DNA of 64,000 nt from Opitutia bacterium (GTDB lineage: Bacteria; Verrucomicrobiota; Verrucomicrobiia; Opitutales; Opitutaceae): assembly GCA_016199925.1 (NCBI GenBank), contig JACQFT010000115.1:14250-78249 (forward strand). The letters are read 5' to 3'. Of the stretch, positions 856-54,910 are shown piece by piece (the first letter of the stretch is position 1; each line of letters starts with the position of its first letter). A program made the translations under genes and the position numbers. The notes beneath the pieces were generated by a model. It did no database searches, was not told where the DNA came from, and was given only the letters and a program-made list of their open reading frames with translations.

Positions 856-1036
856 GCGCGTCTGAGTTTGTCCTACGGGGAGTGCCGCTTTTTTTGGGGT
901 AAACACCGACTGTGGCGCTCCGGCGCGCCGTGTTAGCCTTTGCGTCCAGTCGCTGCGGCATCGCCCGCAGCTACTTTGGGGCCCGCGGAATCGGTCCGCG
1001 CCGGTCCCGGATCACCACCCAACCCGAAAACAAAAA

Positions 1037-1501
1037 ATGCCCATGAGAAACCCGACCCGACTAGTATTGGTTTGCGCCCTCGCCGCGACCGGAATTGTCC
1101 ACCTGTCCGCCCAGCTCGGCGTGACCGTCTCCGCCGGCGGCCGCAATCCGGCGACCGCCTCGTTGATCGTAGCCTCCGCCAGCGAGTCGATCCGCGCCTG
1201 CGCCTTCGAGGCGCGAAACCAGATGCTCTTCGATCTGGAGACCCGGCTGAAAACCGCGAAGGAACGCATCGAAGAGTTGCTGAGCGCCGGCAAAGCGCTG
1301 GCGGACGAAAAAAAGGGCGAATTTGAATCGGCCGCGCACGATCTCCGGGTCCAGGAAGCGGCCCTGCGGCTCGGCATGCAGGCCGCGGAGAAATCCTCGG
1401 CGGCCGACTGGCCGCGGGTCCGCGCTGCGCTGGCCTTCAGCTACGTCGACTATGTCGGCGTGGTGACGCGGCTGGAGAACCTCGTGGCCGGGCGAACCTG
1501 A
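1037..1501 (+). CDS. Hypothetical secreted protein (signal peptide, helical C-terminal part)
   Basis: ATG start. N-terminal hydrophobic signal: LVLVCALAATGIVHLSAQ. No recognisable catalytic motif. Its C-terminal motif (DWPRVRAALAFSYVDYV) resembles the next gene. Confidence 0.5.
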   Translation: MPMRNPTRLVLVCALAATGIVHLSAQLGVTVSAGGRNPATASLIVASASESIRACAFEARNQMLFDLETRLKTAKERIEELLSAGKALADEKKGEFESAAHDLRVQEAALRLGMQAAEKSSAADWPRVRAALAFSYVDYVGVVTRLENLVAGRT

Positions 1502-1537
1502 GCGCGCGCTCCGGCCGGTCCGGGTGGAGAAGCTTGC

Positions 1538-2032
1538 ATGATCCGAGTGGAAACAATCGTCCGGGTGGCGCGCAGCGCCGGTTTGCTGATGCTGGCGTCA
1601 TGTGCGGCGCAACCGCCGGCCCCCCGGGGGGGGCCGGCTCCGGACCTCGCGGCGGAGCGGCCGGGCCCGCGGCCGCCGCCCCGAGCCGGAACCGCGGGGC
1701 CGGGCGAACTGGTGTTGCAGATCGGGCGATGTCCGCCGGAAGACCGTGCGGCGCTGCTGGCCGTGCTGCGCAACCAGCGGGAGGAGCTGCGCATTATCCG
1801 GCAGAAGATCGATCGGCCGGGCGGGGCCATGTCGCCCGATGAGCGGGCCCGCTGGCTGATTCACCTGCCCGACTTGGAACGGCGGGGCGCCGAACTGGAC
1901 CGCTGCATCGAGGAGGCCCGCGCCGGCACGGCCGAGGACTGGCTGGCGTTGCGTCCGCGGCTCGCGGCGCTCTACGCGGAATACGCGAACGCCCGCATTC
2001 TGGCGGAAAGCTCCCGGCCCGCGGGAAAATAG
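1538..2032 (+). CDS. Hypothetical lipoprotein
   Basis: ATG preceded by GGTGGAGA about 8 nt upstream. Lipobox-like LLMLASC followed by a Pro/Gly-rich linker. The C-terminal motif DWLALRPRLAALYAEYA is similar to the preceding ORF. Confidence 0.5.
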   Translation: MIRVETIVRVARSAGLLMLASCAAQPPAPRGGPAPDLAAERPGPRPPPRAGTAGPGELVLQIGRCPPEDRAALLAVLRNQREELRIIRQKIDRPGGAMSPDERARWLIHLPDLERRGAELDRCIEEARAGTAEDWLALRPRLAALYAEYANARILAESSRPAGK

Positions 2033-2060
2033 TCGGGGTGCCCGCTCCGATGGCGGTCCC

Positions 2061-2738
2061 TCAGGCCGGGCCGAGGGCCGGCTTGGCTTCGATGATGCCC
2101 TTGGCCATCGCGTAGCGTGTGAGGCCGGCGATGTCGTGGATGTTCAGCCGGTCCATCACCTGCTGGCGGTGTTTCTCCACCGTCTTGACGCTGATCGAAA
2201 GGACGACGGCGATCTGCTTGTTGGTTTTGCCCTCGGCGATCAGTTGCAGGACTTCGCGCTCGCGGATGCTGAGCGATTCGGCGGATTTTCGCGCCGGCTG
2301 GCCGCTGAGAAAAGCGCGGCGGTAGTGGTCGAGCATCCGGCGCGAAATGGAGGGACTGAAATAGGCGTTGCCGAGTTTCGCTTCGCGGATGGCTTTGATG
2401 AGATCGTTGGCGGCGGTCTGCTTGAGCAGATAGCCGATGGCACCGGCCTCCGTGAGTTGCTCGACGTATTCGTCGTCGCTGTAGGACGAGAGGATGATGA
2501 CGCGGCACGACGGGATATCGCGGGTGATCTGGCGCGTGGCGTCGAGGCCGTTGAGGACGGGCATGGCGATGTCCATCACGATGACGTCGGGCAGAAATTT
2601 GCCGGCCAACTGGAGCGCCTGGCGGCCGGTTTCGGCTTCGCCGACGACTTCGATGTCGGGTTCGACGGCGAGCAGCGCGCGCAGGCCCTGGCGCATGACG
2701 GTGTGGTCGTCGGCGAGGAGAACAGTGATTTTTTGCAT
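2061..2738 (-). CDS. NarL/FixJ-family response regulator (REC + LuxR-type HTH)
   Basis: REC motifs: LLADDH, VIVMDIAMP (phospho-acceptor Asp), ILSSY, GYLLK. C-terminal LuxR HTH: LSIREREVLQLIAEGKTNKQIAVVLSISVKTVEKHRQQVMDRL. Confidence 0.93.
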   Translation of the reverse strand: MQKITVLLADDHTVMRQGLRALLAVEPDIEVVGEAETGRQALQLAGKFLPDVIVMDIAMPVLNGLDATRQITRDIPSCRVIILSSYSDDEYVEQLTEAGAIGYLLKQTAANDLIKAIREAKLGNAYFSPSISRRMLDHYRRAFLSGQPARKSAESLSIREREVLQLIAEGKTNKQIAVVLSISVKTVEKHRQQVMDRLNIHDIAGLTRYAMAKGIIEAKPALGPA

Positions 2739-2753
2739 AGGCGCGGAAGCAGG

Positions 2754-5141
2754 TTAAAGTGGTTTGACGGGAATGATGATGCGCAGGGTCGTGCCGCAGC
2801 CGGGAGCGGAGTCGACCAGGAAGTCGCCGTTGACGAGGCGGACGCGCTCGGCGATCCCGAGCAGGCCGAGGCGGTTGGAGCCGGCGCCCGACGCCTTGCC
2901 GTCGGTCAGGAATCCGCGGCCCTCGTCCCTGATCTCGAGCCGCACGCGGTGCTCCGAGTTGGCGAGGGTCACGGTGATCTGTTTGGCGTGCGCGTGCTTG
3001 GCGGCGTTGTTGAGCCCTTCCTGCACGACGCGGTAGATCACGGTCTTCCGCTCGGCGTCGAGTCGCTCGATGCCGTTGGCCCGCTCCGGTTGGAAGCGCA
3101 CGGCGATGCCGGTGCGCTCGGCGAAAAGCTTCACGTAGGAGCGGACCGCGGGCAGCAGGCCGAGGTCGTCGAGCATGGCCGGCCGCAACTCGCGGGCGAA
3201 GCGGTGCACGGTCTCCATCGTGTGCTCGAGCAGTTGCCGGGTGTCGGCGATGCGCTTCGTCGTCTCGGGCGGCGCGCCGCCGAGGGCGCGTTGGATCACC
3301 GCGAGGTTGACGTTGATGGCCGTGAGCGACTGGCCGACTTCGTCGTGCAGGTCGCGGCTGATGCGGGCGCGTTCCTGCTCCTGGATTTCGAGAATGCGGT
3401 TGGAGAGATTGCGCAGGTTCTCCTGCATCCGGTAGGCTTGGTGGAAAAGTTCGCGATAGTGTTCCTCGCTTTGGAGCACGGCTTCCTCGCTGCGCTTGCG
3501 CCCCGTGATGTCCCGTCCGGTGGCGATGATGATCCGTTGGCTCGACAGCGGCGAGGCGCTCCAGAGCGTCCATTTCACCGTGCCGTCCTTGCACGGGCAG
3601 CGGAGTTCGAGCGCGGCGATATCCTGCCCCTGTTGGAGCTTGCCGAGCTCGGCGAGCAGGGCGGGCCGGTCATCCGGATGGACGAACTCCACGTAGGGCC
3701 GGCGCAACAGCTCGGCGCTGTCGTAGCCGAGGGTGCGTTCCCAGGCCGGATTCACGCGCTTCAGGAATCCGTCGAAGCCGGCGAGACAGTGCATGTCGAT
3801 CGAACGGTTGAAGAAGCGGTCCAACTGTTCCTCCGTCCGTTCCCGGTGGCAGATGGCGCCGAGTTCGCCGGCGACGGCGTGCACCAGTGCGCGCCAGCGT
3901 TCGTCCGGCTGGAGGGCGACGGGGAGAAAAAAAGCCATGAGGCCGACCGTCAGCTCGTTGGCTTTGAGCGGCAGCACGAGCGCCGCCTTGAGGCCGGCGA
4001 GTTCGCTTTGCCGGGGGCGGAAAAAATCCGGTCCGGCGGCGAGATCGCCCTGCCAGTGCGGCTCGTTGATCTGCCAATGGCGGGCGGGCAAGTCGCGCTC
4101 CCGGTTGAAAACGCGCGAGGCGCTCGTCTCCTGGAATTTTGCCCATGCGGGCACATCGGGCAGATGCGCGGCGGCGAACCGGTGCAGCGTGCCGTCCGGC
4201 AGCGGCATCCAGACTTCGCCGACGGCCCAGCCCGCGACCTGGCAGAGATGGGCCAGCACCTTGGTGGTCGCGCCGGCGAGGTCGTCGCTCTGGCAAATGA
4301 TCTGGCCCGTCTCTAGCAGGAGCCGGAGGTCGGCCTCGGCGCGCTTGCGTTCGGTGATGTCGCGGCCGATGCCGCAGATGCCGGCGCGGCGGCCGTCCTT
4401 GATCTGCGGCGCCAGGGTGAATTCACCGACGGCGTATTCGCCGTCGTGTTTGCGGACGCGGTATTCGCGGCGGCGCGGCGGTTCGCCGCCTAGGATGGCG
4501 CGGAACCGCTCGAGCGCGACCGGCTGGTCCTCGGGGTGGAGCAGGGGGGCGAACGGCTGCCCGATCCACTCGGCGCGCGGCCAACCGGTGAGCGCCTCGA
4601 AGGCCGGGTTGAGCGCGGCGATGCGCCCGTCGATCGTGAGGAGGAAGATGACGTCGTTGGCGGACTCGATCAGCGCGCGGTAACGGTCCTCCGAGGCGCG
4701 CAGTTCGCTCTCGGCCGTCAGGAGCACGGTGATGTCGCGCGTGATGACGACGGCGCGGCGGACGCCGGGGCGATCCGCCTGCGGATAAAGGCTGACATCG
4801 AAATGGCGGAGGCCGGTGCGGGGAAATTCAAACCGCGCCTGGTAGTGGATTTCTTCGCCGGCGAGACAGCGGTCGAGTTGCGGGCGGATGCTGGCCTCGA
4901 AAATCTCGGCGCCCCAGACTTCGGCGACGGTGCGGCCGACGAGCTGTTGGCGGTCGAGTCCGTTGGCGCGGCAATAGGCGTCGTTCACCGCGAGGTAAAC
5001 GTAGTCCGAGTCGATCAGCGTGAAGTAGTCGGTCGAGGTGTTCACAATCGCCTCAAAGCGTTTCGGCAATTCGCCCCGGTCCGGCGACGGGGGGCCGGAG
5101 TCGGGGCGCACGCCCGTGGGCTGGATGGCGCTAACGTTCAT
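2754..5141 (-). CDS. Soluble multi-PAS/GAF sensor histidine kinase (HisKA_3 / NarX-DegS type)
   Basis: Repeated PAS-like blocks ending in RDIT (VITRDITV, GIGRDITERKRAE, ATGRDITGRKRSE), with a GAF-like middle region. H-box ERARISRDLHDEVGQSL. HATPase N and G boxes: QEGLNNAAKHA, RDEGRGF, GLLGIAERV. No TM segment. Start taken at the internal ATG (MNVSAIQ) at 5141, which overlaps the upstream stop by 11 nt. The ORF-track start at 5261 lies inside the upstream gene. Confidence 0.9.
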   Translation of the reverse strand: MNVSAIQPTGVRPDSGPPSPDRGELPKRFEAIVNTSTDYFTLIDSDYVYLAVNDAYCRANGLDRQQLVGRTVAEVWGAEIFEASIRPQLDRCLAGEEIHYQARFEFPRTGLRHFDVSLYPQADRPGVRRAVVITRDITVLLTAESELRASEDRYRALIESANDVIFLLTIDGRIAALNPAFEALTGWPRAEWIGQPFAPLLHPEDQPVALERFRAILGGEPPRRREYRVRKHDGEYAVGEFTLAPQIKDGRRAGICGIGRDITERKRAEADLRLLLETGQIICQSDDLAGATTKVLAHLCQVAGWAVGEVWMPLPDGTLHRFAAAHLPDVPAWAKFQETSASRVFNRERDLPARHWQINEPHWQGDLAAGPDFFRPRQSELAGLKAALVLPLKANELTVGLMAFFLPVALQPDERWRALVHAVAGELGAICHRERTEEQLDRFFNRSIDMHCLAGFDGFLKRVNPAWERTLGYDSAELLRRPYVEFVHPDDRPALLAELGKLQQGQDIAALELRCPCKDGTVKWTLWSASPLSSQRIIIATGRDITGRKRSEEAVLQSEEHYRELFHQAYRMQENLRNLSNRILEIQEQERARISRDLHDEVGQSLTAINVNLAVIQRALGGAPPETTKRIADTRQLLEHTMETVHRFARELRPAMLDDLGLLPAVRSYVKLFAERTGIAVRFQPERANGIERLDAERKTVIYRVVQEGLNNAAKHAHAKQITVTLANSEHRVRLEIRDEGRGFLTDGKASGAGSNRLGLLGIAERVRLVNGDFLVDSAPGCGTTLRIIIPVKPL

Positions 5142-5757
5142 GGTTCGCTTCCTTGAACCGGGCAACGAGAACGAGCGCGTCGTCCGTGCCTTTAGAATAT
5201 TTTTGCAAAAGATGGTCGGCGATCCGTTGTGGCGCGCTCTTGACCGGCACATCGTGCTCAAAGTCCGGGCGGATGCCGTCGCTGGCGAAAATGAGCACGT
5301 CGCCCGCGTAAACCGGAATCACGCTGGCGTAGATGACCGGCAACTGGGCGCCGACGGTGCCGCCTTTTTGCAGGGCGCGCTCGTTCGCGGCCCCGTTCGC
5401 CCCGTCGCCGCGCAGCAGCAAAGCCTCGACGTTGCCGATGCCGCACCACGTGACCGTGTGGTCGTGCTCGTCGAATTTGGCCAGGGACATCACGACGCCG
5501 CGGGTCGGGCCGAGCGTGATGTGGCAGCGGTTGATCAGCGAGTGCAGCGAGTCGTTCGGATACTGGCGCAACGACTCGGTGGCGGCGGTGGCGGCCCGGG
5601 TGGCCTCGGGCCCGTGCCCGATGCCGTCGACGACGGCGAGCAGCAGTCCGCGATCGTGGGACTGCACCAAGTGCAGATCGCCGGAGACGGCCTGTCCCGG
5701 CAGGGCGGATTGCGCGACCGCCCAGTCAACGCGAATGGTTGAGTTGGGAGTTTTCAT
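5131..5757 (-). CDS. rsbX: RsbX-like PP2C/SpoIIE-family serine phosphatase
   Basis: About 200 aa with the PP2C-type pattern GDLHLV...LLLAVVDGIGHGPEA...LIFASDGI, positioned directly after rsbT as in RsbRSTX modules. Confidence 0.8.
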   Translation of the reverse strand: MKTPNSTIRVDWAVAQSALPGQAVSGDLHLVQSHDRGLLLAVVDGIGHGPEATRAATAATESLRQYPNDSLHSLINRCHITLGPTRGVVMSLAKFDEHDHTVTWCGIGNVEALLLRGDGANGAANERALQKGGTVGAQLPVIYASVIPVYAGDVLIFASDGIRPDFEHDVPVKSAPQRIADHLLQKYSKGTDDALVLVARFKEANHER

Positions 5758-6169
5758 CTTTCACCCATTTTCGCATGGTGACCTTCGTGCCTTTGCCCAC
5801 GGCGGATTCGATTTCAAATTCGTCCATCAGCCACTTCGCGCCGGGCAGACCGACGCCGAGGCCGCGGCGCGTCGAGTAGCCGTATTGCATCGCGAGCCCG
5901 ATGTCGGCGATGCCGGGCCCCTGGTCGTTGGCGGCGACCTGCAAGCCGCGCTGGCTGCCGCGCTGCACAAAGGAGAAAACCACTTCGCCGCGCTTGGCGT
6001 GGTCGAGGATGTTGCGCGCGATTTCCGAAATCGCGGCCGCGACCAGCGTCACCTCGGCGCTGGACAGCCCCAACGCCATCGCCTGTTCGCGACCCTGCTG
6101 ACGGGCGGTGACGATGTCGATCGTCGAGCGAACCTCGACCCGGACCTCGCTATTTGGCGGGCTTTGCAT
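5726..6169 (-). CDS. rsbT: RsbT-like serine kinase / switch protein (GHKL ATPase fold)
   Basis: About 147 aa. ISEIARNILDHAKRG (N-box-like), NDQGPGIADI (G1), RRGLGVGLPGAKWLMDEFEI (G2). Size and position are typical of RsbT. Confidence 0.85.
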   Translation of the reverse strand: MQSPPNSEVRVEVRSTIDIVTARQQGREQAMALGLSSAEVTLVAAAISEIARNILDHAKRGEVVFSFVQRGSQRGLQVAANDQGPGIADIGLAMQYGYSTRRGLGVGLPGAKWLMDEFEIESAVGKGTKVTMRKWVKDENSQLNHSR

Positions 6170-6524
6170 GCACCTTGGTTTTCTGGTTCAGAAACGCCAA
6201 ACCTTCTTCCAAATCCAGCGCGGTGCCGACGCCTTCCAGCGTCAGGCCGAGCTGCACCATCGCAAAAGCCACTTCGGGTTGGATGCCGACAATCACGGTT
6301 TCGGCCCCGCGCAGATTCAGCATGTGCACCATGCCGCGCAGGGTGCGCGTCGCAAACGAGTCGATGACGTCGAGCACGGTCACGTCGATGATCACGCCGC
6401 GCGCGCGGAACTGGCCGACTTTGTCCGCGAGGTCGTCGCGGAGCTGCAGCATGTCCGCGTCGGAGAGCACGGCCTGAATGCTGGCAATCAGGTAGCTGCC
6501 TTGCTTGAGGATCGGGACTTGCAT
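6150..6524 (-). CDS. rsbS: RsbS-like single-domain STAS protein (stressosome scaffold)
   Basis: 124 aa, STAS only. Start MQVPILKQGSYLIASIQ. Conserved phosphorylatable Ser context VLDVIDSFATRTL. Confidence 0.85.
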   Translation of the reverse strand: MQVPILKQGSYLIASIQAVLSDADMLQLRDDLADKVGQFRARGVIIDVTVLDVIDSFATRTLRGMVHMLNLRGAETVIVGIQPEVAFAMVQLGLTLEGVGTALDLEEGLAFLNQKTKVHAKPAK

Positions 6525-6536
6525 GGTCCGCGGCGA

Positions 6537-7526
6537 TCAAGTGTCGATTTCAACTTCGGCCGCGGTGGAGTCGACGCTCTTGACCTTGTAGCCGAGCATT
6601 TTTTCCGCCAGTTCGATACCGCCCTGGAGATCGCCGACGGCGTTCATCTTGCTGAGGTCGACGCCGATGGTGACGAGGGTCTGCGCGATTTCGGACGACA
6701 GGCCGGTGATGATGACGCCGGCACCCATGAGACGCGAGGCCTCGACGGTCTGCACCAAGTGGTTGGCCACCGTCGAGTCGATCGTCGGCACACCGGTGAT
6801 ATCGACGACGACAACTTTGGCGCGGTTGTTGCGGATGCCGCGGAGGAGTTGCTCGGTGAGCTGCTTGGCGCGCTGGGAGTCGATGACACCGATGATCGGC
6901 AGAATCAGCAGACGTTCGCGCACCTGCAACACGGGGGTGGAGAGTTCGCGGATGGCCTCCTGCTGCTGGCGGATGATGCGCACGTTTTCCTGCACGAACG
7001 AGACGGCCACGGTGTTCGCGATGCGGTTGGCGGCGGGCTCGTAGGCGTCGAGCACGCGGTTGAGCAGGTTGAAGTCGTGCTGGTATTTTTTGAAGAGCGA
7101 GCGGGCGAGCACGTCGCGGAGAAGGAGCACGATGCCGATGACTTCGTCGGTTTCGACGCCGCGCGGGATGATACGCTCGGAGAGATTGCGGGCGTAGGCT
7201 TGCAGGGCGTCCACGCTGCCGGTCTCGAGCACTTCGACGTAGTTGTCATACACCGAGGTGACTTCGGAGAAAATCTCCTCCTTGCTCATTGCGGAGAGCA
7301 ACTTGGCGTCGAGAATGTTGCGGGCCCAGACTTCGCGCAATTGCGTGCGGTTCTCACGCAGGTGGGAGACCAGCTCGCGGAGCAGGGGATCGCTGTAGTT
7401 GACGGTCGGCTGCAGTTTGACCTGCGGCATGTTGCTGTTGTCCGAGGCGGACGGATCCTGGCGGGTGATCTCCGCTTTGCGGTGCGCTTTGGGTCGGTTG
7501 ACGTTCAATTCCGGGTTGCCCTTCAT
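6537..7526 (-). CDS. rsbR: RsbR-like stressosome sensor (N-terminal RsbR-type helical sensory domain + C-terminal STAS)
   Basis: C-terminal STAL/STAS signature ELSTPVLQVRERLLILPIIGVIDSQRAKQLTEQLL...VVVDITGVPTIDSTVANHLV...GAGVIITGLSSEIAQTL. The N-terminal ~170 aa are helical. An alternative start (MPQVKL) lies at 7430. Confidence 0.85.
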   Translation of the reverse strand: MKGNPELNVNRPKAHRKAEITRQDPSASDNSNMPQVKLQPTVNYSDPLLRELVSHLRENRTQLREVWARNILDAKLLSAMSKEEIFSEVTSVYDNYVEVLETGSVDALQAYARNLSERIIPRGVETDEVIGIVLLLRDVLARSLFKKYQHDFNLLNRVLDAYEPAANRIANTVAVSFVQENVRIIRQQQEAIRELSTPVLQVRERLLILPIIGVIDSQRAKQLTEQLLRGIRNNRAKVVVVDITGVPTIDSTVANHLVQTVEASRLMGAGVIITGLSSEIAQTLVTIGVDLSKMNAVGDLQGGIELAEKMLGYKVKSVDSTAAEVEIDT

Positions 7527-7638
7527 GGGGATGTTCCTTGGCGGGGTTGAGAGTTAGGAGCGTTGGGTGGTCGATTTCGATCCGCCGCAATTCGGCCTGA
7601 CCGAACTGCAACCATAGAACCAAGGGCATGGGTATTTG

Positions 7639-7658
7639 CCCAGTAGGTAAATACCCCA
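7639..7658 (-). promoter_or_regulatory. Copy of a recurrent upstream motif (GGGGT-ATTT-ACCTAC-TGGG, read on the minus strand) upstream of the stressosome operon
   Basis: The minus-strand 17-mer GGTATTTACCTACTGGG differs at one position from GGTATTCACCTACTGGG at 61222..61238. It lies about 115 nt upstream of ATG 7526 in a locally AT-richer intergenic region, inside a larger inverted repeat GGTATTT..AAATACC. Confidence 0.35.
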
Positions 7659-7800
7659 TTTGCCCCAAAAATCGACCCGGGAAGTTCGGATGCGGCCCCA
7701 CGCCTTGGCCTGCTGGGCCTCGGCGCCTCCGGTCCTTTTCGGCCGGATTGCGGGCCCTCACTCCATCGCCGGAGCATCAAAACCGTGCTTAAGTCGGAGC

Positions 7801-10800
7801 ATGAGAAAACATCGATTCCAATACCGCTACCGAAGCGTCCTCCGGTCATGTTTGCTCCGATTGCTCCTGCCGGGATTGTTCCTCGGCGCCGGCGGGAACG
7901 CGGTGCGCTTGACGGCGGAGACCGTCGCGCCCACTCAATTGCTCTTGTCGCTTCCCAATCCGGGCGACCACGGGTTGCGGATATTGACGCCCCGCGTCCT
8001 TGAGTTGGAGCTCGATCAGGTGAAAGCGCCGGACTCGGTCACGTTGGCCGGCTGGAACTTTGCCGGCTCCGGCACGCAGGTCGTGTCGCTCAGTGTTCCG
8101 CAGCTTGCCGTTTTGGCGGACGGGAATCCCGTCCTGGTCGAGGCCCTCGGATTCAAACGACGGGCGGCTTACGCGCCGCTCGTGCGGCGCGACCTGCGCG
8201 TCGCCAGTTTCCTCTACCTGCGGTTGGCCGGCCCCATCGGGCCGGGCCAGCGCGTCGAAGTCCGGAATCCGGACGGGCAACTTTGGTCGCCGGCAATTTC
8301 GTTTGTGACGCAGGCCGACGAGCTGCGCGTCAACCCCGCGATCCACGTCAACCAGGAGGGTTACCTGCCGTCGTTCCCGAAGAAAGCGATGGTCGGCTAT
8401 TATCTCGGCAGCCTCGGCGAAATGGAGGTGCCGGCCGGCAGCGGATTTTCCTTGGTCGACGCCGCCAGCGGCGCGGCGGTCTTCACGGGCGCGCTGCGGC
8501 AGCGTGCCGATATCGGTTACACCTACAGCCCGGCTCCGTATCAACTCGTCTACGAGGCGGACTTCAGCAGCTTCACGACGCCGGGCGTCTACCGCGTGGC
8601 CGTGCCGGGGATGGGCGCCTCGCTGCCGTTCCGCATCGACGAAGGCATGGCGATGAACTTCGCGCGCGTCTACGCGCTCGGCCTTTATCACCAGCGCTGC
8701 GGCACCGACAACGCGCTGCCGTTCACGCGCTTCACTCACGGCGCCTGCCACGTGGCGCCGGTCGCGGTGCCGACGCCGCAATCCGATTTTCCGGCCACGT
8801 GGAACTTCATCAGCCAAGTCAGCAGCGATTTCGCGGCGAACCCGCGGCACACCGCACCGCAGTTGCATAGCGAAGCGACGCAGCTCTACCCGTTCGTGCG
8901 GACCGGGACGATTGATGCCGCCGGCGGGCACCACGATGCCGGCGACTACAGCAAATACACGACGAACAGTGCTTCGCTGGTGCACACGCTCGTCTTTGCC
9001 GTGGATTCGCTGCCGGGCGTGGCGGCGCTCGACAATCTCGGTTTGCCCGAAAGCGGCGACGGCATTCCCGACCTGCTGCAGGAAGCGAAATGGGAAGCGG
9101 ATTTCCTCGCGAAACTGCAGGACAGCGACGGCGGTTTCTACTTCCTCGTCTATCCGCGCAACCGCGCCTACGAGAGCAATGTCTTGCCCGACCAGGGCGA
9201 CCCGCAGGTCGTCTGGCCGAAAAATACCGCTGCGACCGCGGCCGCGACCGCGGCGCTGGCGCAGGCGGCCTCGTCCCCGCGATTCCGGCAATTCTACCCG
9301 GACGCGGCGGCGCTCTATCTCCAGAAAGCCAAACTCGGCTGGCAATTTCTCACCAGCGCCATCGCGCGGTTCGGCAAAGACGGGGCCTATCAGAAGCTGA
9401 CGCACTACGGTGACAATTTCATGCACGATGACGAACTCGCCTGGGCCGCGACCGAGCTCTTCCTCGCGACCGGTGACGAGGCGTATCACCAGCAGCTCAA
9501 GCAGTGGTTCGATCCGGCGGATCCGGCGACTCGCCGTTGGGGCTGGTGGCGGATGAGCGAATGCTACGGCAACGCGATTCGCAGCTATGCCTTCGCGGCG
9601 CGCAGCGGCCGCTTGCCGGTCAGCCGCCTCGACTCCGTTTTCCTGCAAAAATGTGAACAGCAAATCGAGGGTGCCGGGCGCGACGCGCTGAAATGGTCCG
9701 ACCAAGGCGCCTACGGCAGCAGTTTTCCGGAGGAGACCAAACACGTGCGCGGTGGCGGCTGGTATTTTTCTCTCGGCCAAGCCTTCGACCTCATCGTCGC
9801 CGACCAACTCGATTATCCACCCGCCAGCGACCCGCGGCCCCGGTTCATGGAAGCATACCTGGCCAATCTGAACTACGAGGCCGGCTGCAACCCGGTAAAC
9901 ATCTCCTACATCACGGGAGTAGGCCGCAAACGCCAGCGCGAGATCGTGCACCAATACGCGCAGAACGACCGCCGGGTGATGCCGCCGAGCGGTTTCCCGC
10001 TCGGCAATATCCAGACCGGGCTCCCTTATCTCGACCTCTACAAGGGTGAACTCGGGGCGCTCTCGTTCCCGGATGATGGAGCCGCGGTGGCGCCGTATCC
10101 TTATTATGACCGGTGGTCCGACACCTACAACGTCTCGACCGAATTCGTCGTGGTCGACCAAGCTCGCGCGGTGGCGGGTCTCGCCTTCGTGGCTGCGCAG
10201 ACTTCGCTGCGCGATCAGCCGTGGCGCCCGGCTGCCGCGCAGATCACGGGATTGCCAACGACGACTCCGGTCGGTTCGGCGGTCACGGCGCGACTCCAGC
10301 CGCCGCCGGGCCTCGACTTGTCGGCCGCCACCGTAACTTGGGAAGCGCACGGACAGGATCCGTTGTCGGGCCCGTCGTTCACCTTCACGCCGCGCGCCAA
10401 CGGCCAGCAGTGGGTCGAAGCCGAGGCGTATTGGCCGGACGGCCGGCGTGTGTTTGCGGTGCAGAATTTCAAAGCGACCAACGGTCTGCCCGACGTCACG
10501 GTCACCGCGCCGGTGGCGCTCGCGACTGTGGCCGATTCGGGTCAGGGCAATTTTGTTTTCCGACGCACCGGCGATTTGTCGGGCCCGCTGACGGTGAGCT
10601 ACAACCTGCAGGGCACCGCGACCAAGTGGAACGACTACCGCCGTCCCGAAGGAGATATGCCCGATACCATCACGTTCCAAAGCGGCGCCGACTCCGTCAC
10701 ACTGACGATCGTGCCGGTGGCCTCGAGCCTCGCCGGGCAAACCAAAATTGTGACCTTGTCGCTAAAGACTGCGTCCGACTACAACCCCGAATCGCCGAGC

Positions 10801-11187
10801 TCGGCCAGCATAGTTCTTCAAGGTGCGGGCGGTCCTCAGCAACCCGCCCCGCCCCCGCCGTCGTCCAATCCGCCGCCGGACTCGAGTCCGCCTCCGGCCG
10901 ACAATCCGCCACCGTCAACCACCCCGCCGCCACCGTCAACCACCCCGCCGCCGCCGTCCACTACGCCGCCGCCGCCGCCGTCCACTACGCCGCCGCCGGC
11001 GGACACACCGCCGCCGTCAAGCAATCCGCCGCCGACCAATGTCCCGCCGCCGGTCGTCCCGCCGGCGCCAGCCAAGAACCCAAGCGGCAGCGGCGGTGCA
11101 CCGAGCGGATGGCTGACCGTGGCCCTGTTGGCGCTGACGTTCCTGCGTCTGCGGTTTGGCACGGCCACCCGCGACCGCTCGAAGTAA
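7801..11187 (+). CDS. Secreted glycoside hydrolase family 9-like enzyme with N-terminal Ig-like domain, Calx-beta domain, Pro-rich stalk and C-terminal hydrophobic anchor
   Basis: Signal peptide after ATG 7801 (MRKHRFQ...LLLPGLFLGAGG). GH9 hallmark AAGGHHDAGDYSKY and downstream (alpha/alpha)6-type blocks (DELAWAATELFLATGDEAY, ISYITGVG). Calx-beta block (FVFRRTGDLSGPLTVSYNLQGTATKWNDY...ITFQSGADSVTLTI). Tail ends GAPSGWLTVALLALTFLRLRF. The ORF-track start at 7660 adds an implausible leader. Confidence 0.88.
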   Translation: MRKHRFQYRYRSVLRSCLLRLLLPGLFLGAGGNAVRLTAETVAPTQLLLSLPNPGDHGLRILTPRVLELELDQVKAPDSVTLAGWNFAGSGTQVVSLSVPQLAVLADGNPVLVEALGFKRRAAYAPLVRRDLRVASFLYLRLAGPIGPGQRVEVRNPDGQLWSPAISFVTQADELRVNPAIHVNQEGYLPSFPKKAMVGYYLGSLGEMEVPAGSGFSLVDAASGAAVFTGALRQRADIGYTYSPAPYQLVYEADFSSFTTPGVYRVAVPGMGASLPFRIDEGMAMNFARVYALGLYHQRCGTDNALPFTRFTHGACHVAPVAVPTPQSDFPATWNFISQVSSDFAANPRHTAPQLHSEATQLYPFVRTGTIDAAGGHHDAGDYSKYTTNSASLVHTLVFAVDSLPGVAALDNLGLPESGDGIPDLLQEAKWEADFLAKLQDSDGGFYFLVYPRNRAYESNVLPDQGDPQVVWPKNTAATAAATAALAQAASSPRFRQFYPDAAALYLQKAKLGWQFLTSAIARFGKDGAYQKLTHYGDNFMHDDELAWAATELFLATGDEAYHQQLKQWFDPADPATRRWGWWRMSECYGNAIRSYAFAARSGRLPVSRLDSVFLQKCEQQIEGAGRDALKWSDQGAYGSSFPEETKHVRGGGWYFSLGQAFDLIVADQLDYPPASDPRPRFMEAYLANLNYEAGCNPVNISYITGVGRKRQREIVHQYAQNDRRVMPPSGFPLGNIQTGLPYLDLYKGELGALSFPDDGAAVAPYPYYDRWSDTYNVSTEFVVVDQARAVAGLAFVAAQTSLRDQPWRPAAAQITGLPTTTPVGSAVTARLQPPPGLDLSAATVTWEAHGQDPLSGPSFTFTPRANGQQWVEAEAYWPDGRRVFAVQNFKATNGLPDVTVTAPVALATVADSGQGNFVFRRTGDLSGPLTVSYNLQGTATKWNDYRRPEGDMPDTITFQSGADSVTLTIVPVASSLAGQTKIVTLSLKTASDYNPESPSSASIVLQGAGGPQQPAPPPPSSNPPPDSSPPPADNPPPSTTPPPPSTTPPPPSTTPPPPPSTTPPPADTPPPSSNPPPTNVPPPVVPPAPAKNPSGSGGAPSGWLTVALLALTFLRLRFGTATRDRSK
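10843..11078 (+). repeat. In-frame low-complexity proline-rich tandem repeats (PPPSTT/PPPSSN units) forming a stalk in the GH9 protein
   Basis: Translation PPPSTTPPPPSTTPPPPSTTPPPPPSTTPPPADTPPPSSNPPPTNVPPP. The DNA shows consecutive ~21-nt units (ccgccaccgtcaaccaccccg twice, ccgccgtccactacgccgccg twice). Confidence 0.8.
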
Positions 11188-11342: not shown

Positions 11343-11364
11343 GTGGGTCTTCACCCACTGGGGA
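11343..11364 (+). promoter_or_regulatory. Copy of the recurrent upstream palindromic motif (GTGGGT-CTTC-ACCCAC-TGGGGA) ahead of the polysaccharide operon
   Basis: Perfect 6-bp palindrome with a 4-nt spacer followed by TGGG, about 55 nt upstream of ATG 11419. It has the same architecture as 61219..61240, with compensatory A>G / T>C changes in the two half-sites. Confidence 0.4.
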
Positions 11365-14049: not shown

Positions 14050-14949
14050 ATGAAAGCCCTGCTCTTTTGTCCCGTCGCTTCCCCGGAGATCGCCGCCCTT
14101 TCGGCGCGGGCGACGCCGGCGGCTCTGCCGTTGCTCGGCGAAACGCTGGCCGCGTATTGGCTGGTGCACCTCGCGAGTCTCGGGGCAAAAGAAGTGACGA
14201 TCCTCGCGCCGGACCGGCCGGAAGAAATCCGGCAGGCCGTCGGCGACGGCGCGCGCTGGGGCTTGCGGGTCGAAGTGGTGGCGGTCGCCGAGACGATGAC
14301 GCTCGCCGAAGCGCGCCCGAGTTTTCAGGGCGTGGGCCACTCGGAATGGCTGCCCGCGCCCAACGATCTGATTTTGATGGACCGTCTGCCCGGGTTGCCC
14401 GGAGCGGGCCTGTTCGGCAGCTACGCCCAATGGTTCGCGGCCTCGCAGTCATGGATGTCGCGCGCCCTTACGCCGGACCGGGTCGGCGCGCACGAGATCC
14501 GGCCCGGAATCCGCGTCGGCTTGCACGGCCGGATTCCCGCCGACGCAGTGCTCAACCCTCCGTGCTGGATCGGCGACCAAGTCTTTCTCGGTGCGGGCGT
14601 GACCGTCGGACCGATGACGGCTTTGGAAAACCGGGTGGTGGTCGAGGCCGGCGCGGAAATTTCCCACAGCATCGTCGGCCCGGATACTTTTGTCGGCCGC
14701 CTGGCCGAACTCCACGACTCGATCGCGTGGGGCGACACCCTCATCAACTGGAAGAGCGGTTCGAGCCTGCGCGTGACGGCCGGCTTCTTGCTCAGCTCGC
14801 TGGGCGACGATCAACGGACCCCTCCGCCCGCGCTGCGCCGGCCGGCGTGGAACCTTTCCCGGCTGTGGTCGCCGCCGGAGCCGCCCGCCGTCTCGCCGGC
14901 GCTGGTGCCCCCGTTCGGCGCCGCTGAGCGCGACCGCTACTACAAATGA
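14050..14949 (+). CDS. Nucleotidyltransferase-like protein with C-terminal left-handed beta-helix (hexapeptide) domain; NTP-binding loop degenerate
   Basis: The N-terminal alpha/beta region resembles sugar-1-P nucleotidyltransferases (PLLGETLAAYWLVHLASLGAKEVTIL) but has no GxGTRL loop. C-terminal hexapeptide-like repeats: IGDQVFLGAGVTVGPMTALENRVVVEAGAEISHSIVGPDTFVG. Confidence 0.5.
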   Translation: MKALLFCPVASPEIAALSARATPAALPLLGETLAAYWLVHLASLGAKEVTILAPDRPEEIRQAVGDGARWGLRVEVVAVAETMTLAEARPSFQGVGHSEWLPAPNDLILMDRLPGLPGAGLFGSYAQWFAASQSWMSRALTPDRVGAHEIRPGIRVGLHGRIPADAVLNPPCWIGDQVFLGAGVTVGPMTALENRVVVEAGAEISHSIVGPDTFVGRLAELHDSIAWGDTLINWKSGSSLRVTAGFLLSSLGDDQRTPPPALRRPAWNLSRLWSPPEPPAVSPALVPPFGAAERDRYYK

Positions 14950-15275
14950 ACATCGAAATCGACCGAGACACCGTTCGCGTCACCGGACTGCCCGCTCTGG
15001 ACCGACCGACCGCCGAGGCATTTGCGGAGCAAGTCTCCGCCGCGTTGCCGCCGCGGCCCGAAACCATCGAGGTCGATCTCGCGGAAACCGGCAAGGTCGA
15101 CTGCATCGGCTTGGGCGCGTTGGTGGAAGTCTTCGACCAAGCCCAGCGCCGGAACCGCGCGGTGACGCTGCGCGTGATCGATCCCACGCCGCCCGCCCGG
15201 CAGTTGCTCGAACTGACGCGGCTGCACCGGATCTTCCCGGTCGTCCAGCGCAAGAAACCGGAGGCCGCGGGATGA
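14946..15275 (+). CDS. Stand-alone STAS-domain protein (anti-sigma-factor-antagonist fold)
   Basis: 109 aa. IEVDLAETGKVDCIGLGALVEV...VTLRVIDPTPPARQLLELTRL matches the SpoIIAA/RsbV topology. ATGA overlaps on both sides. Confidence 0.8.
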   Translation: MNIEIDRDTVRVTGLPALDRPTAEAFAEQVSAALPPRPETIEVDLAETGKVDCIGLGALVEVFDQAQRRNRAVTLRVIDPTPPARQLLELTRLHRIFPVVQRKKPEAAG

Positions 15276-16474
15276 AAAAGATTCTGCCGCTCTTCGTTTT
15301 CGTCGACGCCTGCGGGTGGGAGATCATCCGCCACGACCGGTTCGGCGCGGACTTTGCCCCGGCACGCCGGCGCCTGCGTTCGGTGTTCGGCTACAGTTCG
15401 GCGTGCATCCCGTCGATCCTCTCCGGCCGCTGGCCGGCGGAGCACCGCAACTGGTGTTACTTCGTCTATGATCCCGCCCGTTCGCCGTTCCGTTTGCTCC
15501 GCCCGTTCCGCTGGCTGCCGCGGGCCGTCACCGGCCGGCGGATCTTCCGGCGCTGGCTCTCGAAGTTTCTCCGCGGCCCTTTGAAATTCCGCGGCTACTT
15601 CGACCTCTACAACCTCGCGTTCCGGCACATCTCGCTCTTCGACTTCACCGAGAAAAAGAATCCTCTGCAGCCGGGCGGCCTGAACCGCGGGCCGAACATT
15701 TTTGATTTTCTCGCCGCGCGCCGCATCCCGTATCACGTCAGCCGGCCGGCGCGGACCGAGGAAGAAAATCTGGCCGCGCTCCGCGCCGACATCGCGGCGG
15801 AGAGCATCGATTTTGCCTTTCTCTACTGGCCCGATCTCGACGGTCTCCTGCACCGCGTCGGCAATCTTTCGCCCGAGGTGCCTGCGAAACTGCGCCAATA
15901 CGAACGCCGGCTGCGCGCGCTGCTCGACCACGCGGCGCAGCACTATGACGAGGTGCGGCTGTATGTGTTCAGCGACCACGGCATGGCGAACTGCGACCGC
16001 TATCTCGACCTGCGGGCGCGGCTCGCCGCGCTGCCCGTGCGCATGCCGGAGGATTACGCGGCCGTTTTCGATTCGACGATGGCACGGTTCTGGTTTTTCA
16101 ACACGCGCGCGCGCACCGAGGTCACGGCGTGTCTCGAGCAGGTCGGCCTCGGCCGCATCCTGCCGGATGCCGAACTCGAAGAACTCGGCGCATTTTTTCC
16201 CGACGGTTATTTCGGCGAGCTGATCTACCTCGTGCCCGAAGGCGTGCTGATCGTGCCCAGCGACATGGGCGAGCGGCCCATCCGCGCGATGCACGGCTAC
16301 CATCCCGACGATCCGCACAGCTACGCCGCATTGCTCACCAACGTGGCGGATACGCCGGCGTGCATCACGGCGATTCCGCACCTGCACACGCTGATGGTGC
16401 GCGATGCCGAGCTCGCGCACGCGGCGAACGCGACCGAGGCGGAGGTCCCGGATATTGCTCCGGCCATCCGGTGA
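15272..16474 (+). CDS. Alkaline-phosphatase-superfamily protein (type I phosphodiesterase / nucleotide pyrophosphatase-like)
   Basis: N-terminal metal/nucleophile region VFVDACGWE...GYSSACIPSILSG. Downstream FLYWPDLDGLLHRVG and VFSDHGM blocks are typical of NPP/AlkP-fold enzymes. Confidence 0.72.
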   Translation: MKKILPLFVFVDACGWEIIRHDRFGADFAPARRRLRSVFGYSSACIPSILSGRWPAEHRNWCYFVYDPARSPFRLLRPFRWLPRAVTGRRIFRRWLSKFLRGPLKFRGYFDLYNLAFRHISLFDFTEKKNPLQPGGLNRGPNIFDFLAARRIPYHVSRPARTEEENLAALRADIAAESIDFAFLYWPDLDGLLHRVGNLSPEVPAKLRQYERRLRALLDHAAQHYDEVRLYVFSDHGMANCDRYLDLRARLAALPVRMPEDYAAVFDSTMARFWFFNTRARTEVTACLEQVGLGRILPDAELEELGAFFPDGYFGELIYLVPEGVLIVPSDMGERPIRAMHGYHPDDPHSYAALLTNVADTPACITAIPHLHTLMVRDAELAHAANATEAEVPDIAPAIR

Positions 16475-30496: not shown

Positions 30497-32167
30497 CTAG
30501 CGGCCGGGTGCCACCGCCAGCGCGGACCGGACGGGCCCGGTTTCCTGGGCCGGAGCGGCGACGAGCTGGCCGTAGTCGAGCTTGAGGACGCGGTCGGCGA
30601 GATGGAAATAGCGGTCGTCGTGCGTGATCACGAGGACGGTCTTGCCGCGGTTGCGCAGTTCGGGTAGGAGCTGCCGGTAGAAAATGTCTTTGAACAACGG
30701 GTCCTGGTCGGCGGCCCATTCGTCGAAGACGTAGCACGGCCGGTCTTCGAGATAGGCGGTGAGCAGCGCGAGGCGCTTGCGCTGGCCCTGCGAGAGCGCG
30801 GTGGTGGAGAGACGGCCGTCGACGACATTCACTTTGTGGCGCAGGTGCAATTGCGCGAGATAGCCGGCCGCGTGCGCGTCGAGATCGGGCGTCGGCAGGC
30901 CGAGCAGGCTGTCGAAGAGGAAGAAATCGGCGAACACGGCGGAGAAGAGCTGGCGGTAGTCGTCGCGGTTGGCGTCGTCGACCGGACGGCCGTCGAGCCG
31001 GATTTCGCCGGTTTCGGGCGGGTAGAGTCCGGTGACGATTTTCGCGAGCGTCGACTTGCCGCCGCCGTTGCCGCCGACAAGGAACACCAGTTCGCCGGCG
31101 TGCAGGGTGAGGTTGAGCGGGCCGAGCACGAAATGGTCGTCGCACTGCTCGCGATGATACGCGTGCGTGACGCCGGCGAGTTCGAGCCGGACAAACGAGG
31201 GCGCGGCGGAGTGCGCCGGGGCGGATTCGCGATCGCGGCCGCGGGCGCCGAGCGACATGCCGAGCGCTTCGACTTTGCGCAGCGCGAGATCCGCGCGGGA
31301 GAAAACCGAAAGACTGCTCATCACGCCGGCGAGCGGGCCCATGAGATAGAGCGTCGTCAGCACGTAGCCGGTCATGGTCTTGGTGTTCACCTGCTCGTAG
31401 ACCGGGAGGAGAAACAGGATCAGGCCGATCAGGCAGTAGAAGAGGAGATGCGCCCAGTTATGCGCGAAGATGAAGCGCGTCTCGGCGGCGACGGTGTGGC
31501 GCTGGAATTCGCCGGTCGTGGCGTCGAGCCCCTGGTGCAGGAACGCGCTGCGGCGGTCGCGGTGGAGTTTCAGTTCCTTGACGCCGTCGGTGAGCGCCCG
31601 GAAGAGCGCGAAGAGTTTGTCCTCGGCTTCGCGGGCGAGGTGCAGCGACCGGAATCCGCTCGTGATGAAAAGCCGGTAGAAGCACGCGCCGAAAAGGATG
31701 AACAGGCCCATCACGAGGAGCAGATGCCACGACAGCCACCCGAGATAGATCGAGCCGCCGAGGAGAATCGCGGTGTTCACCGAGAGGGTGGGGAAGCCGA
31801 AGAGCGCGGCGGTGAGCGAGGTGACGTCTTCGGTCAACGCGGCCATGAGCCGCGGGGCGCCGAGTTCCTCGAGCTGGCGGAGCGGCACCGCGAGGATTTT
31901 GCGGACGAGTTCGCCGCGGAGGTCGGACACCGCCTGCTGCGAAAAGCGGATCAGCCAGACCTGGGAGAAATAGCCGGTGACGATCTTGCCGGCGACGAGC
32001 GCGACGAAGCCGAGCAGCAACGGGCGGGTGAGCGAGGCGGGTTCGTTGACGATGGTGTTGATGAGGGCGATCAAGCCGGCGTTGCAAACGCCGCTGAACA
32101 GGGCGGTGAGGGCGGTGACGGCGACCATGCCGCGGCATTTCAGGAGGAGAAACCGGATGAGGTTCAT
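30497..32167 (-). CDS. Cyclic-peptide-type ABC exporter (fused TMD-NBD; SyrD/PvdE/YojI-like)
   Basis: Six-helix TMD starting MNLIRFLLLKCRGM. NBD with Walker A GGNGGGKSTLAKI, signature LSQGQRKRLAL and Walker B CYVFDEWAADQDP. ATGA overlap with the NRPS gene upstream. Confidence 0.9.
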   Translation of the reverse strand: MNLIRFLLLKCRGMVAVTALTALFSGVCNAGLIALINTIVNEPASLTRPLLLGFVALVAGKIVTGYFSQVWLIRFSQQAVSDLRGELVRKILAVPLRQLEELGAPRLMAALTEDVTSLTAALFGFPTLSVNTAILLGGSIYLGWLSWHLLLVMGLFILFGACFYRLFITSGFRSLHLAREAEDKLFALFRALTDGVKELKLHRDRRSAFLHQGLDATTGEFQRHTVAAETRFIFAHNWAHLLFYCLIGLILFLLPVYEQVNTKTMTGYVLTTLYLMGPLAGVMSSLSVFSRADLALRKVEALGMSLGARGRDRESAPAHSAAPSFVRLELAGVTHAYHREQCDDHFVLGPLNLTLHAGELVFLVGGNGGGKSTLAKIVTGLYPPETGEIRLDGRPVDDANRDDYRQLFSAVFADFFLFDSLLGLPTPDLDAHAAGYLAQLHLRHKVNVVDGRLSTTALSQGQRKRLALLTAYLEDRPCYVFDEWAADQDPLFKDIFYRQLLPELRNRGKTVLVITHDDRYFHLADRVLKLDYGQLVAAPAQETGPVRSALAVAPGR

Positions 32168-36369: not shown

Positions 36370-36373
36370 GCGT

Positions 36374-47010: not shown

Positions 47011-47013
47011 CGG

Positions 47014-50000: not shown

Positions 50001-50289
50001 CGTGCCAGACGATTTGTGGCGACACCTCCGCGTTGACGACCTGCCGCGGCTGCCCGGATTCTTCCCGGTGAAACGAGGTGCGCAGGATGGCGTGCCGTTG
50101 CGCGGCCCAGCGCCAGGCCCGCTCGAAGGCCGCGAGTTTCAACGGTTCCGGGAGCGTGATCAGCAGTTGCTCCACATCCACTCCGGGCCGCGGGGCGAAC
50201 GTGCTGTGAAACAACATTCCCTGCTGCATGGGCGAGAGTGGGTAGGCGTCGTTCAACTGGGCCAGCGGCATGGGGCGGTCGGATTTCAC
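47014..50289 (-). CDS. NRPS module C-A-T (first gene of the assembly line)
   Basis: C: YPLSPMQQGMLFHS, HHLLLDGRG. A: LAYVIYTSGSTGTPKGV, FDAS, NHYGPTETT, YRTGDLVRW, NGKVDR. T: FFALGGQSLR. Specificity residues are DAWFLGHVVK (closest to Leu-type DAWFLGNVVK). The codon at 50289 is GTG. An alternative ATG (MPLAQL) lies at 50271. Confidence 0.92.
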   Translation of the reverse strand: MKSDRPMPLAQLNDAYPLSPMQQGMLFHSTFAPRPGVDVEQLLITLPEPLKLAAFERAWRWAAQRHAILRTSFHREESGQPRQVVNAEVSPQIVWHDWRAARPAERERQWEELLAADRARGFAPDQAPLWRVAVAQTGDHEHRVVFTFHHLLLDGRGLAILLAEVFAASDTFRIGGEPAVAPPVDYRHYIDWLQTLDWGDAEIFWRRVLRGFGSPTPLPGAKSVSAAAPAELSVHRGRELTLPAARHATMKQFAHRHGLTLNTLIQGAWALLLGRYSGEDNVVFGAVRACRHTTVENAESIVGLLINTVPVRVALPPTQSAVVWLQALREFWTALRPYENTPLTELQGWTDVPRGTPLFESIVNYQEPSWDQALRAQGGVWRRRRFGIRSQPSYPLALDAVGGDELSLRLLYDPLRFDDETVGRMLGHLVTLLHGFTEHPEAPISALPLLTPAERHRILLEWNRTEADCDEILCVHHLFEKQAARTPDAVAVVDQRRHVTYRDLNLQANTLARRLLLLGVGPEVCVGVCLPRSVDFVVSLLAVLKTGGAYVPLDPEYPAERQALMLKDAQAPVLITQSRLAGVFAAGPSRIVSVDDVLAFSSPPETVVATTALSSPDHLAYVIYTSGSTGTPKGVAIQHRSLVNLIAWHQRTYQITAHDRATQIASPAFDASGWEIWPYLTAGASVHIPPDEIRADPAQLALWLANRQITLCFLPTPLAEATMDVAWPADTALRAILTGGDRLRRWPGEKLPCMLVNHYGPTETTVVATRLPVATASKHLAAPPIGAPIANTQAYVLDPHRQPLPVGVPGELYLGGLGLARGYHHQPEFTREKFVPHPFQPGARLYRTGDLVRWHADGQLEFLGRLDQQVKIRGHRIEPAEIESVLQTHRAVQECLVAAHDDGTGQIHLVAYFQTEADQDPPAPRELAQLLRGRLPSHMVPAAFVHVTRWPLTANGKVDRARLPRPDKLGRDSAPPFAAPASETEKIISRIWGEVLGRGGIGAQDDFFALGGQSLRAAQVISRLNSEFQSTLSVRSLFEHPTVGALARALEQKSGRPKARRTAGGIVRLRRRPYRPAAAGTPKPVRAAPKN

Positions 50290-54760: not shown

Positions 54761-54910
54761 CCCGGCTGTTCGCACCGCGGGCATCGCCTGCATGGAGCCG
54801 GACCCCGCTCGCGCCGGGGTGCTTCGCCCCCCGCAGAGCAGGCGTTCACCCAGCGGCGGCGTCCGGCGCGCTGTGCTATTGATGAGGAGGCTCAAACCAC
54901 TCCTTCCACC

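Follow-up and report, generated by a model that had tools for sequence, protein, structure and literature searches.

Stressosome modules with two-component outputs have been catalogued (Heinz 2022, PMC9237108; Pane-Farre 2005, as cited in PMC9237108), in agreement with a preliminary description of the DNA studied here, which had taken stressosomes with non-SigB outputs to be on record. In most of the catalogued loci of the RSTX type (rsbR, rsbS, rsbT, rsbX), the downstream partner lacks the RsbU N-terminal domain, RsbU_N, and has no shown interaction with RsbT (PMC9237108). Kinases that do carry RsbU_N occur in proteobacterial stressosome operons (Heinz 2022, PMC9237108; Ho and Bradshaw 2025, PMC12143880). 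In Bacillus subtilis, RsbU is activated when RsbT binds to its RsbU_N domain and linker and orders a dimeric coiled coil, a mode of activation that the authors proposed for RsbU_N-bearing kinases as well (PMC12143880). Neither stressosome-to-two-component wiring nor a kinase with RsbU_N is new to the literature, and partners without RsbU_N are common, Vibrio included. Stressosome outputs outside Firmicutes are poorly understood, and our literature search found no paper on Opitutaceae stressosomes. Here, we analyze a stressosome operon in a stretch of 64,000 nt from an Opitutia bacterium (Opitutaceae; contig JACQFT010000115.1), hereafter the window, which is the visible part of this genome and derives from a groundwater metagenome. 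The value of the locus is that a loss of RsbU_N can be demonstrated, by parsimony, inside an otherwise orthologous family.

The operon consists of six tightly chained minus-strand genes in the order rsbR, rsbS, rsbT, rsbX, histidine kinase, and response regulator (Table 1), an arrangement borne out by the list of open reading frames (ORFs) and a filter on third-position GC content (GC3), which is 0.81–0.87 across the six. Consecutive frames overlap by 20 nt (rsbS/rsbT), 32 nt (rsbT/rsbX), and 11 nt (rsbX/kinase), and the kinase and regulator genes lie 15 nt apart, exactly as first reported; a gap of 12 nt separates rsbR from rsbS. A divergent GH9 gene bounds the operon on one side and convergent small ORFs bound it on the other, so the operon cannot continue past the window edge. 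The case of rsbU, rsbV, rsbW, and a sigma factor lying just beyond that edge in the same operon is, therefore, excluded. Two further gene calls were rejected. A TTG start at 5261 would add 40 residues to the kinase, and these fall inside rsbX and lack homology. A putative seventh gene on the minus strand (7523–7849), overlapping the rsbR start, has a low coding signal, is missing from the gene calls of relatives, and spans a conserved noncoding motif. A scan of 1400–8200 for sigma-70 promoters and terminators returned nothing above chance.

Judged by domains and residues, RsbR, RsbS, RsbT, and RsbX make up a stressosome set, and Pfam agreed with the calls for all six proteins, with RsbRD_N and GAF below their gathering scores. 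RsbR has a variable N-terminal domain, a C-terminal STAS domain (58.6 bits), and two phosphorylatable residues, Ser217 and Ser251, which occupy the phosphothreonine positions T175 and T209 of Listeria monocytogenes RsbR with Ser instead of Thr. Its RsbRD_N match is weak (20.2 bits against a gathering score of 24.3), and it aligns with residues 4–267 of the L. monocytogenes protein, nearly the whole length (E = 4.5e-32). RsbS is a single STAS domain that aligns over its full length with RsbS of L. monocytogenes, B. subtilis, and Moorella thermoacetica (E = 5e-27 to 3e-21), its phospho-acceptor Ser56 aligning with Ser56 of L. monocytogenes. RsbT has the sequence of a GHKL-type serine kinase and switch protein. 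Its homologs number 2832, many labeled RsbT by JGI. Across 16 homologs compared, the ATP-binding motifs show no variation: N-box (E49..N53), G1 box (D82-G-P-G), and GLGVGLPG. It is 81% identical to RsbT of Opitutus sp. GAS368, and its other near relatives are from Lacunisphaera and further Opitutaceae. RsbX is a single-domain PP2C phosphatase (SpoIIE, E = 6e-14). Among solved structures, it matched two proteins only: MtX of M. thermoacetica (3zt9, E = 7e-16) and RsbX of B. subtilis (3w40, E = 1e-13). The complete RsbRST core with an RsbX feedback phosphatase that was originally proposed is, thus, supported by both Pfam domains and solved homologs. RsbR and RsbS would presumably assemble into a large complex that sequesters RsbT until its release.

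The kinase comprises 795 residues laid out as PAS_4, PAS, GAF, PAS_3, HisKA_3 (59 bits), and HATPase_c (48 bits), with the H-box HDEVGQ at His599 and no hydrophobic membrane-spanning segment in the entire sequence. Its GAF match falls below the gathering score (20.6 versus 22.4 bits), and the same region aligns with a clear GAF_2 domain in the orthologous kinase of another locus (L039). This alignment upholds the earlier assignment of a membrane-less PAS-PAS-GAF-PAS HisKA_3 kinase. The regulator, first described as a DNA-binding protein of the NarL type, has the expected Response_reg (98.8 bits) and GerE (69.6 bits) domains, and its translation shows the REC residues of the acidic pocket and the phospho-Asp. 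NCBIfam returned only generic matches for the six proteins, all below cut-off, with the regulator hitting NarL, UvrY, and MctR types. The kinase–regulator pairing is conserved across all loci compared; this conservation and the 15-nt adjacency suggest phosphotransfer from the kinase to the regulator.

We scanned one genome per species for related clusters, obtaining 68 loci, almost all from Verrucomicrobiota, and evaluated synteny by local phmmer with the window proteins as queries. The gene order is the same in nearly all scanned loci, and ∼45 of them, from distinct species, contain all six genes, which agrees with the view that the module bears a co-transcribed HisKA_3 kinase and NarL-type regulator. 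In total, the cluster is kept in ∼60 species-level genomes, almost all Verrucomicrobiota. Opitutus sp. GAS368 and a Lacunisphaera metagenome-assembled genome (MAG) share all six genes, their overlaps, and the divergent GH9 gene with the window, and the NCBI annotation of GAS368 gives identical gene calls and overlaps. Six loci (L015, L016, L022, L027, L042, and L053) contain a trio of RsbT, kinase, and regulator with no RsbR, RsbS, or RsbX nearby. As the trios persist in this form, the three proteins appear to be a conserved functional unit. These orphan trios adjoin the same exopolysaccharide operon and GH9 gene as are found in the window.

The N-termini of the orphan-trio kinases read like the RsbU N-terminal domain. 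A clade-specific hidden Markov model (HMM) built from 45 orthologous RsbU_N segments matched the N-terminus of 47 orthologous kinases with 77–106 bits. It matched neither the window kinase nor 12 close relatives of that kinase nor any other ORF of the window. The Pfam family PF08673 was confirmed in all five positive kinases tested (37–44 bits; gathering score of 25.5), was absent from all five tested kinases of the window's clade, and had no match in the window kinase at E <= 0.01. The RsbU_N-less set, formed by the window kinase and its 12 relatives, spans Opitutus, Lacunisphaera, Nibricoccus, Oleiharenicola, and unclassified MAGs; all 13 loci keep the six-gene order and the overlapping frames. 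A search of the clade's genomes with the RsbU_N segment of L039 for proteins encoding the domain in trans returned only 19 fragments. The L047 kinase (8664–10589, plus strand) has two RsbU_N-like segments in tandem, and in a gammaproteobacterial (Colwelliaceae) outgroup (L069; 7484–8363, plus strand), two tandem RsbT paralogs precede rsbX and an RsbU_N-HisKA-HATPase_c-REC hybrid kinase.

The kinase of L039 (910 residues) has the layout RsbU_N-PAS-PAS-GAF-PAS-HisKA_3-HATPase_c, and its residues 135–907 are colinear with residues 24–794 of the window kinase (45% identity, 12 gaps). The window kinase is, thus, the same protein minus RsbU_N and its linker, the first 134 residues. In a neighbor-joining tree of the six concatenated proteins, the 13 RsbU_N-less loci are monophyletic with 93/100 support. 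Single-gene trees failed to recover this group (6/100 for RsbT and 18/100 for the kinase core), and a BLOSUM-distance tree of the kinase core, which carries no support values, nests the RsbU_N-less clade among RsbU_N-bearing kinases. Given the domain's presence in 47 relatives and on the kinase after rsbX in the outgroup L069, the colinearity with L039, the concatenated tree, and the RsbU_N-bearing kinases in the literature, secondary loss is the parsimonious explanation for its absence from the window's clade. The locus had been put forward as a clean example of the RsbT-to-kinase link. It is not one, as most orthologous kinases carry RsbU_N and the window kinase is a derived form without it.

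The ancestral arrangement also bears on whether the stressosome might be wired classically in trans, feeding an RsbU-type phosphatase, RsbV, RsbW, and a sigma factor outside the window, with the adjacent two-component system unrelated. Only 64 kb of the genome are visible, two STAS-domain proteins are encoded elsewhere in the window, and in relatives, the exopolysaccharide operon includes a HATPase_c_2-GAF-SpoIIE protein beside a STAS gene, all of which suit such wiring. We nevertheless consider it improbable. In the 47 relatives and the outgroup, the adjacent kinase itself carries the RsbT docking domain as a fusion, which marks that kinase as the ancestral RsbT target. Moreover, Pfam scans of every plausible ORF in the window found no sigma factor, RsbU, or RsbW, and precomputed Pfam gene tables for the 20-kb contexts of Opitutus sp. 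GAS368 and the Lacunisphaera MAG list no RsbU, RsbV, RsbW, or sigma factor. A SigB-type cascade, in which RsbU, RsbV, RsbW, and a group-3 sigma factor would accompany rsbRST, is, thus, found in neither the operon nor the window. Of the earlier statement that the window holds no RsbU, RsbV, RsbW, anti-sigma, or sigma factor, the part on RsbU, RsbW, and sigma stands, and the two additional STAS domains qualify the rest. RsbT and RsbX have no paralog in the window.

Both of these STAS proteins belong to polysaccharide loci and are unrelated to the stressosome operon. The first, a standalone protein inside the exopolysaccharide operon, has Cys (VDCIG) at the phosphoserine position, a further point against wiring in trans. 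Its ortholog in relatives (L016, 4618–4923, minus strand) keeps DSSG and is followed by a 623-residue HATPase_c_2-GAF-SpoIIE fusion (L015, 2717–4588, minus strand); by sequence, the pair is a self-contained partner-switching module. The place of the fusion gene is taken in the window by a Phosphodiest-family gene. The second is a WecG/TagA-family glycosyltransferase with a STAS domain fused at its C-terminus. This domain retains the canonical Ser (VDFVDSTG), and the protein might be phosphorylated by a kinase of the RsbW/RsbT type.

Upstream of rsbR, in the divergent intergenic region that it shares with the GH9 gene, lies a motif with a two-fold palindromic core (TGGGT-CTTC-ACCCA; TAGGT-ATTC-ACCTA). 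When as many as three mismatches are permitted, the window contains four copies versus 0.35 expected (Table 1). Each copy precedes a same-strand gene by 50–125 nt and is followed ∼19 nt later by a TAnnnT-like hexamer. The rsbR copy occupies the same position across loci of the window's clade, and a variant form is found in many loci of the RsbU_N clade. The copy before the exopolysaccharide operon is conserved in L001 and L004, where it precedes the orthologous GT4 operon, and variants of it lie on the opposite strand 300–470 nt from rsbR in L021, L030, L034, and L048. It is plausible from these sequences that GGGT-N4-ACCY is the operator of the operon's NarL-type regulator. If so, the motif suggests autoregulation and control of surface polysaccharide, and by linking the system to the exopolysaccharide operon and the GH9 gene, it makes cell-surface polysaccharide a candidate output in this lineage, which is common in groundwater and soil.

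The motif could instead bind another transcription factor or belong to a promoter read by an alternative sigma factor, which we regard as rather unlikely. In favor of such a role, the sigma-70 consensus scan of the region gave no promoter-like site, the window encodes other regulators (the REC proteins at 61289 and 61961), and GGGTAT resembles the SigB-type −10 hexamer. However, the two-fold palindrome is typical of a dimeric helix-turn-helix protein, its place ∼19 nt upstream of a TAnnnT-like hexamer is that of a class II activator site, and the motif travels with the operon in both clades. In addition, the half-site TACCCAT fits the NarL heptamer TACYYMT.

We read the locus as a complete stressosome module with an ancestral, co-transcribed two-component output, in which RsbT still modulates the kinase after the deletion of RsbU_N and the regulator binds the motif; we assign this reading a probability of roughly 55%. 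RsbR and RsbS would form the scaffold, with RsbT as the switch kinase and RsbX as the feedback phosphatase. In the wider family, RsbT would phosphorylate RsbS and RsbR under stress, be released, and bind the N-terminal RsbU_N of the kinase, ordering its dimeric linker and thereby switching kinase activity so that the regulator becomes phosphorylated. As the orthologous kinases mostly bear RsbU_N, a direct physical link to RsbT is expected in those that have it. In the window's subclade, the first ∼134 kinase residues would have been deleted, with the cluster, the overlaps, and a constrained RsbT retained. The B. subtilis-type model, thus, fits the 47 relatives and cannot apply unchanged here. 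RsbT may still modulate the kinase of this clade, either by phosphorylating it on Ser/Thr or by touching its membrane-proximal-equivalent PAS/DHp core in a new way, with the PAS/GAF array adding independent inputs. The phosphorylated regulator would then bind GGGT-N4-ACCY, autoregulating the operon and controlling the adjacent exopolysaccharide operon and two other promoters.

Several observations weigh against this reading. The only documented docking route for RsbT is missing from the window kinase, and our HMM, run on the 12 sister loci, detected no ORF that encodes RsbU_N separately within ∼8 kb. The N-terminal arrays of the RsbU_N-less kinases vary (PAS_4-PAS-PAS, PAS_4-GAF-PAS, and GAF-PAS), so no conserved replacement docking domain is apparent. 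In the comparable RsbU_N-less system of Vibrio, Heinz et al. did not detect an interaction between VvRsbT and VvD1 (PMC9237108). Furthermore, we infer the assignment of the motif to the operon's own regulator, and the sequencing runs containing the locus are groundwater DNA only, with no RNA-seq among them.

Some of these points suit a decoupled output, in which the kinase–regulator pair senses its own PAS/GAF signals and does no more than control the stressosome genes or share their expression, and RsbT has its target elsewhere. The docking domain and linker are cleanly deleted, sensor domains have been freely shuffled within the clade, the RsbT–D1 result in Vibrio is negative (PMC9237108), and a motif upstream of rsbR suits a regulator that controls the operon rather than one controlled by it. 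We hold decoupling to be the somewhat less likely explanation nonetheless. The order of the six genes and their overlapping frames persist in 13/13 RsbU_N-less loci, no alternative RsbU_N ORF occurs within ∼8 kb, and the scan found no second RsbT locus in the RsbU_N-less genomes. RsbT of this clade shows conservative clade-specific substitutions only, with no notable relaxed sites, and has a C-terminal tail of 6–12 residues that is missing from most RsbTs of the RsbU_N clade. It also keeps two arginines that we assume to correspond to R19 and R23, the RsbU-contacting residues of B. subtilis RsbT. Weighing the constraint on RsbT, its arginines, and its tail together with the variable sensor arrays, we slightly prefer coupling retained by another route to functional decoupling. 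One specific form of retained coupling, which we offer tentatively, is that RsbT has gained RsbU_N-independent control of the kinase, either by Ser/Thr phosphorylation or by docking of the clade-specific tail on the PAS/DHp core. If true, this would be a second, undescribed mechanism of stressosome-to-two-component coupling and could explain the Vibrio-type loci that lack RsbU_N.

Beyond the operon, Pfam places glycosyltransferases, a polysaccharide operon, a type II secretion secretin and ATPase, an ABC exporter adjoining a nonribosomal peptide synthetase/polyketide synthase (NRPS/PKS) cluster, subtilases, and a second two-component pair in the window. The GH9 gene recurs near the RsbT-kinase-regulator unit in L003 and L016 (by Pfam) and in L027, L042, and L053 (by N-terminal similarity), its relative position varying. 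A small gene in L001 (157 residues) resembles the small ORFs flanking the regulator gene in size and place only and likewise has a motif copy upstream. Two short ORFs flanked by intact protease genes look like a broken third subtilase copy.

Table 1. Coordinates of the stressosome operon, the motif copies, and other features of the window.
Feature	Position	Strand	Remarks
Response regulator (NarL/FixJ family)	2061-2738	-	Pfam Response_reg and GerE
Histidine kinase (soluble, HisKA_3)	2754-5141	-	ATG start; Pfam PAS (three), HisKA_3, HATPase_c
rsbX	5131-5757	-	Pfam SpoIIE
rsbT	5726-6169	-	Pfam HATPase_c_2
rsbS	6150-6524	-	Pfam STAS
rsbR	6537-7526	-	Pfam STAS and weak RsbRD_N
Motif, GGGGTATTTACCTACTGGG then second half-site AAATACCCAT	7624-7657	-	∼113 nt upstream of the rsbR start
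Motif copy, TGGGTCTTCACCCACTGGG	11344-11362	+	56 nt before 11419, where the exopolysaccharide operon likely starts
Motif copy	896-914	+	Upstream of the small secreted-protein ORF 1037-1501
Motif copy, TAGGTATTCACCTACTGGG	61220-61238	+	50 nt ahead of the REC-only gene (61289-61909)
Small ORFs	1037-1501, 1538-2032	+	High GC3; no Pfam match; convergent with the regulator gene; 1037-1501 starts with a hydrophobic stretch resembling a signal peptide
GH9 cellulase-like gene	7660-11187	+	Likely true start ∼7801; CelD_N, Pro/Thr-rich linker, C-terminal hydrophobic anchor
Standalone STAS gene	14946-15275	+	Inside the exopolysaccharide operon
Phosphodiest-family gene	15272-16474
NRPS/PKS cluster	30497-50289	-	C-A-T-TE; KS-AT-T-C-A-T; C-A with embedded luciferase-like monooxygenase, then T; C-A-T
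WecG/TagA-STAS fusion gene	50368-51672	+
Protease genes, S8 and Calx-beta	54287-56674, 58209-61106		Intact; flank 56984-57490
Two short ORFs	56984-57490	+	Fervidolysin pro-domain and Peptidase_S8 fragment
REC-only gene and kinase gene	61289-64000	+	REC-only gene 61289-61909; REC-PAS-PAS-PAS-HisKA kinase from 61961, running off the window

The closest described system is VvRsbR-S-T-X-D1-D2 of Vibrio vulnificus (PMC9237108), which shares the RSTX order, the position of RsbX right after RsbT, the absence of RsbU and sigma, and a downstream PAS-bearing two-component protein without RsbU_N. In contrast to the heme-binding globin N-terminus of the V. vulnificus RsbR, the window RsbR is of the nonheme RsbR/RsbRD_N type. 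The V. vulnificus output is a hybrid kinase and a GGDEF protein (two-component/cyclic di-GMP), whereas that of the window is a HisKA_3 kinase and a NarL-type regulator. The window, moreover, comes from Verrucomicrobiota, and its lack of RsbU_N is demonstrably, on the parsimony argument above, a secondary loss.

The M. thermoacetica system MtR-MtS-MtT-MtX (Quin et al. 2012, as cited in PMC12143880) is likewise of the RSTX type with a nonsigma output, and its MtX is the best solved homolog of the window RsbX. As described there, the output MtG is an RsbU_N-GAF-GGDEF diguanylate cyclase, unlike the kinase–regulator pair without RsbU_N found here. The SigB stressosome of B. subtilis and L. monocytogenes has homologous RsbR, RsbS, RsbT, and RsbX, and the phospho-acceptor positions and kinase motifs are kept in the window. 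It differs in the order R-S-T-U-V-W-SigB-X, as the window has no RsbU, RsbV, RsbW, or SigB and places RsbX directly after RsbT. The phosphorylation sites of the window RsbR are Ser rather than Thr, and this RsbR is single, with no paralog in the window.

Kinases fused to RsbU_N, namely the gammaproteobacterial NreB type (PMC12143880, Fig. 5E) and the "Dogia, Ruegeria" types (Heinz 2022), have the same layout as the 47 Verrucomicrobiota orthologs: RsbU_N, optional PAS/GAF domains, and a HisKA_3 core, encoded directly after rsbX or rsbT. The window kinase differs from them in lacking their defining feature, RsbU_N with its linker. L039 (910 residues, with RsbU_N) and the window kinase (795 residues, without it) are otherwise colinear in sensor array and core. 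They, thus, form a natural matched pair, and this difference of one 134-residue module allows the need for RsbU_N in RsbT signaling to be addressed directly.

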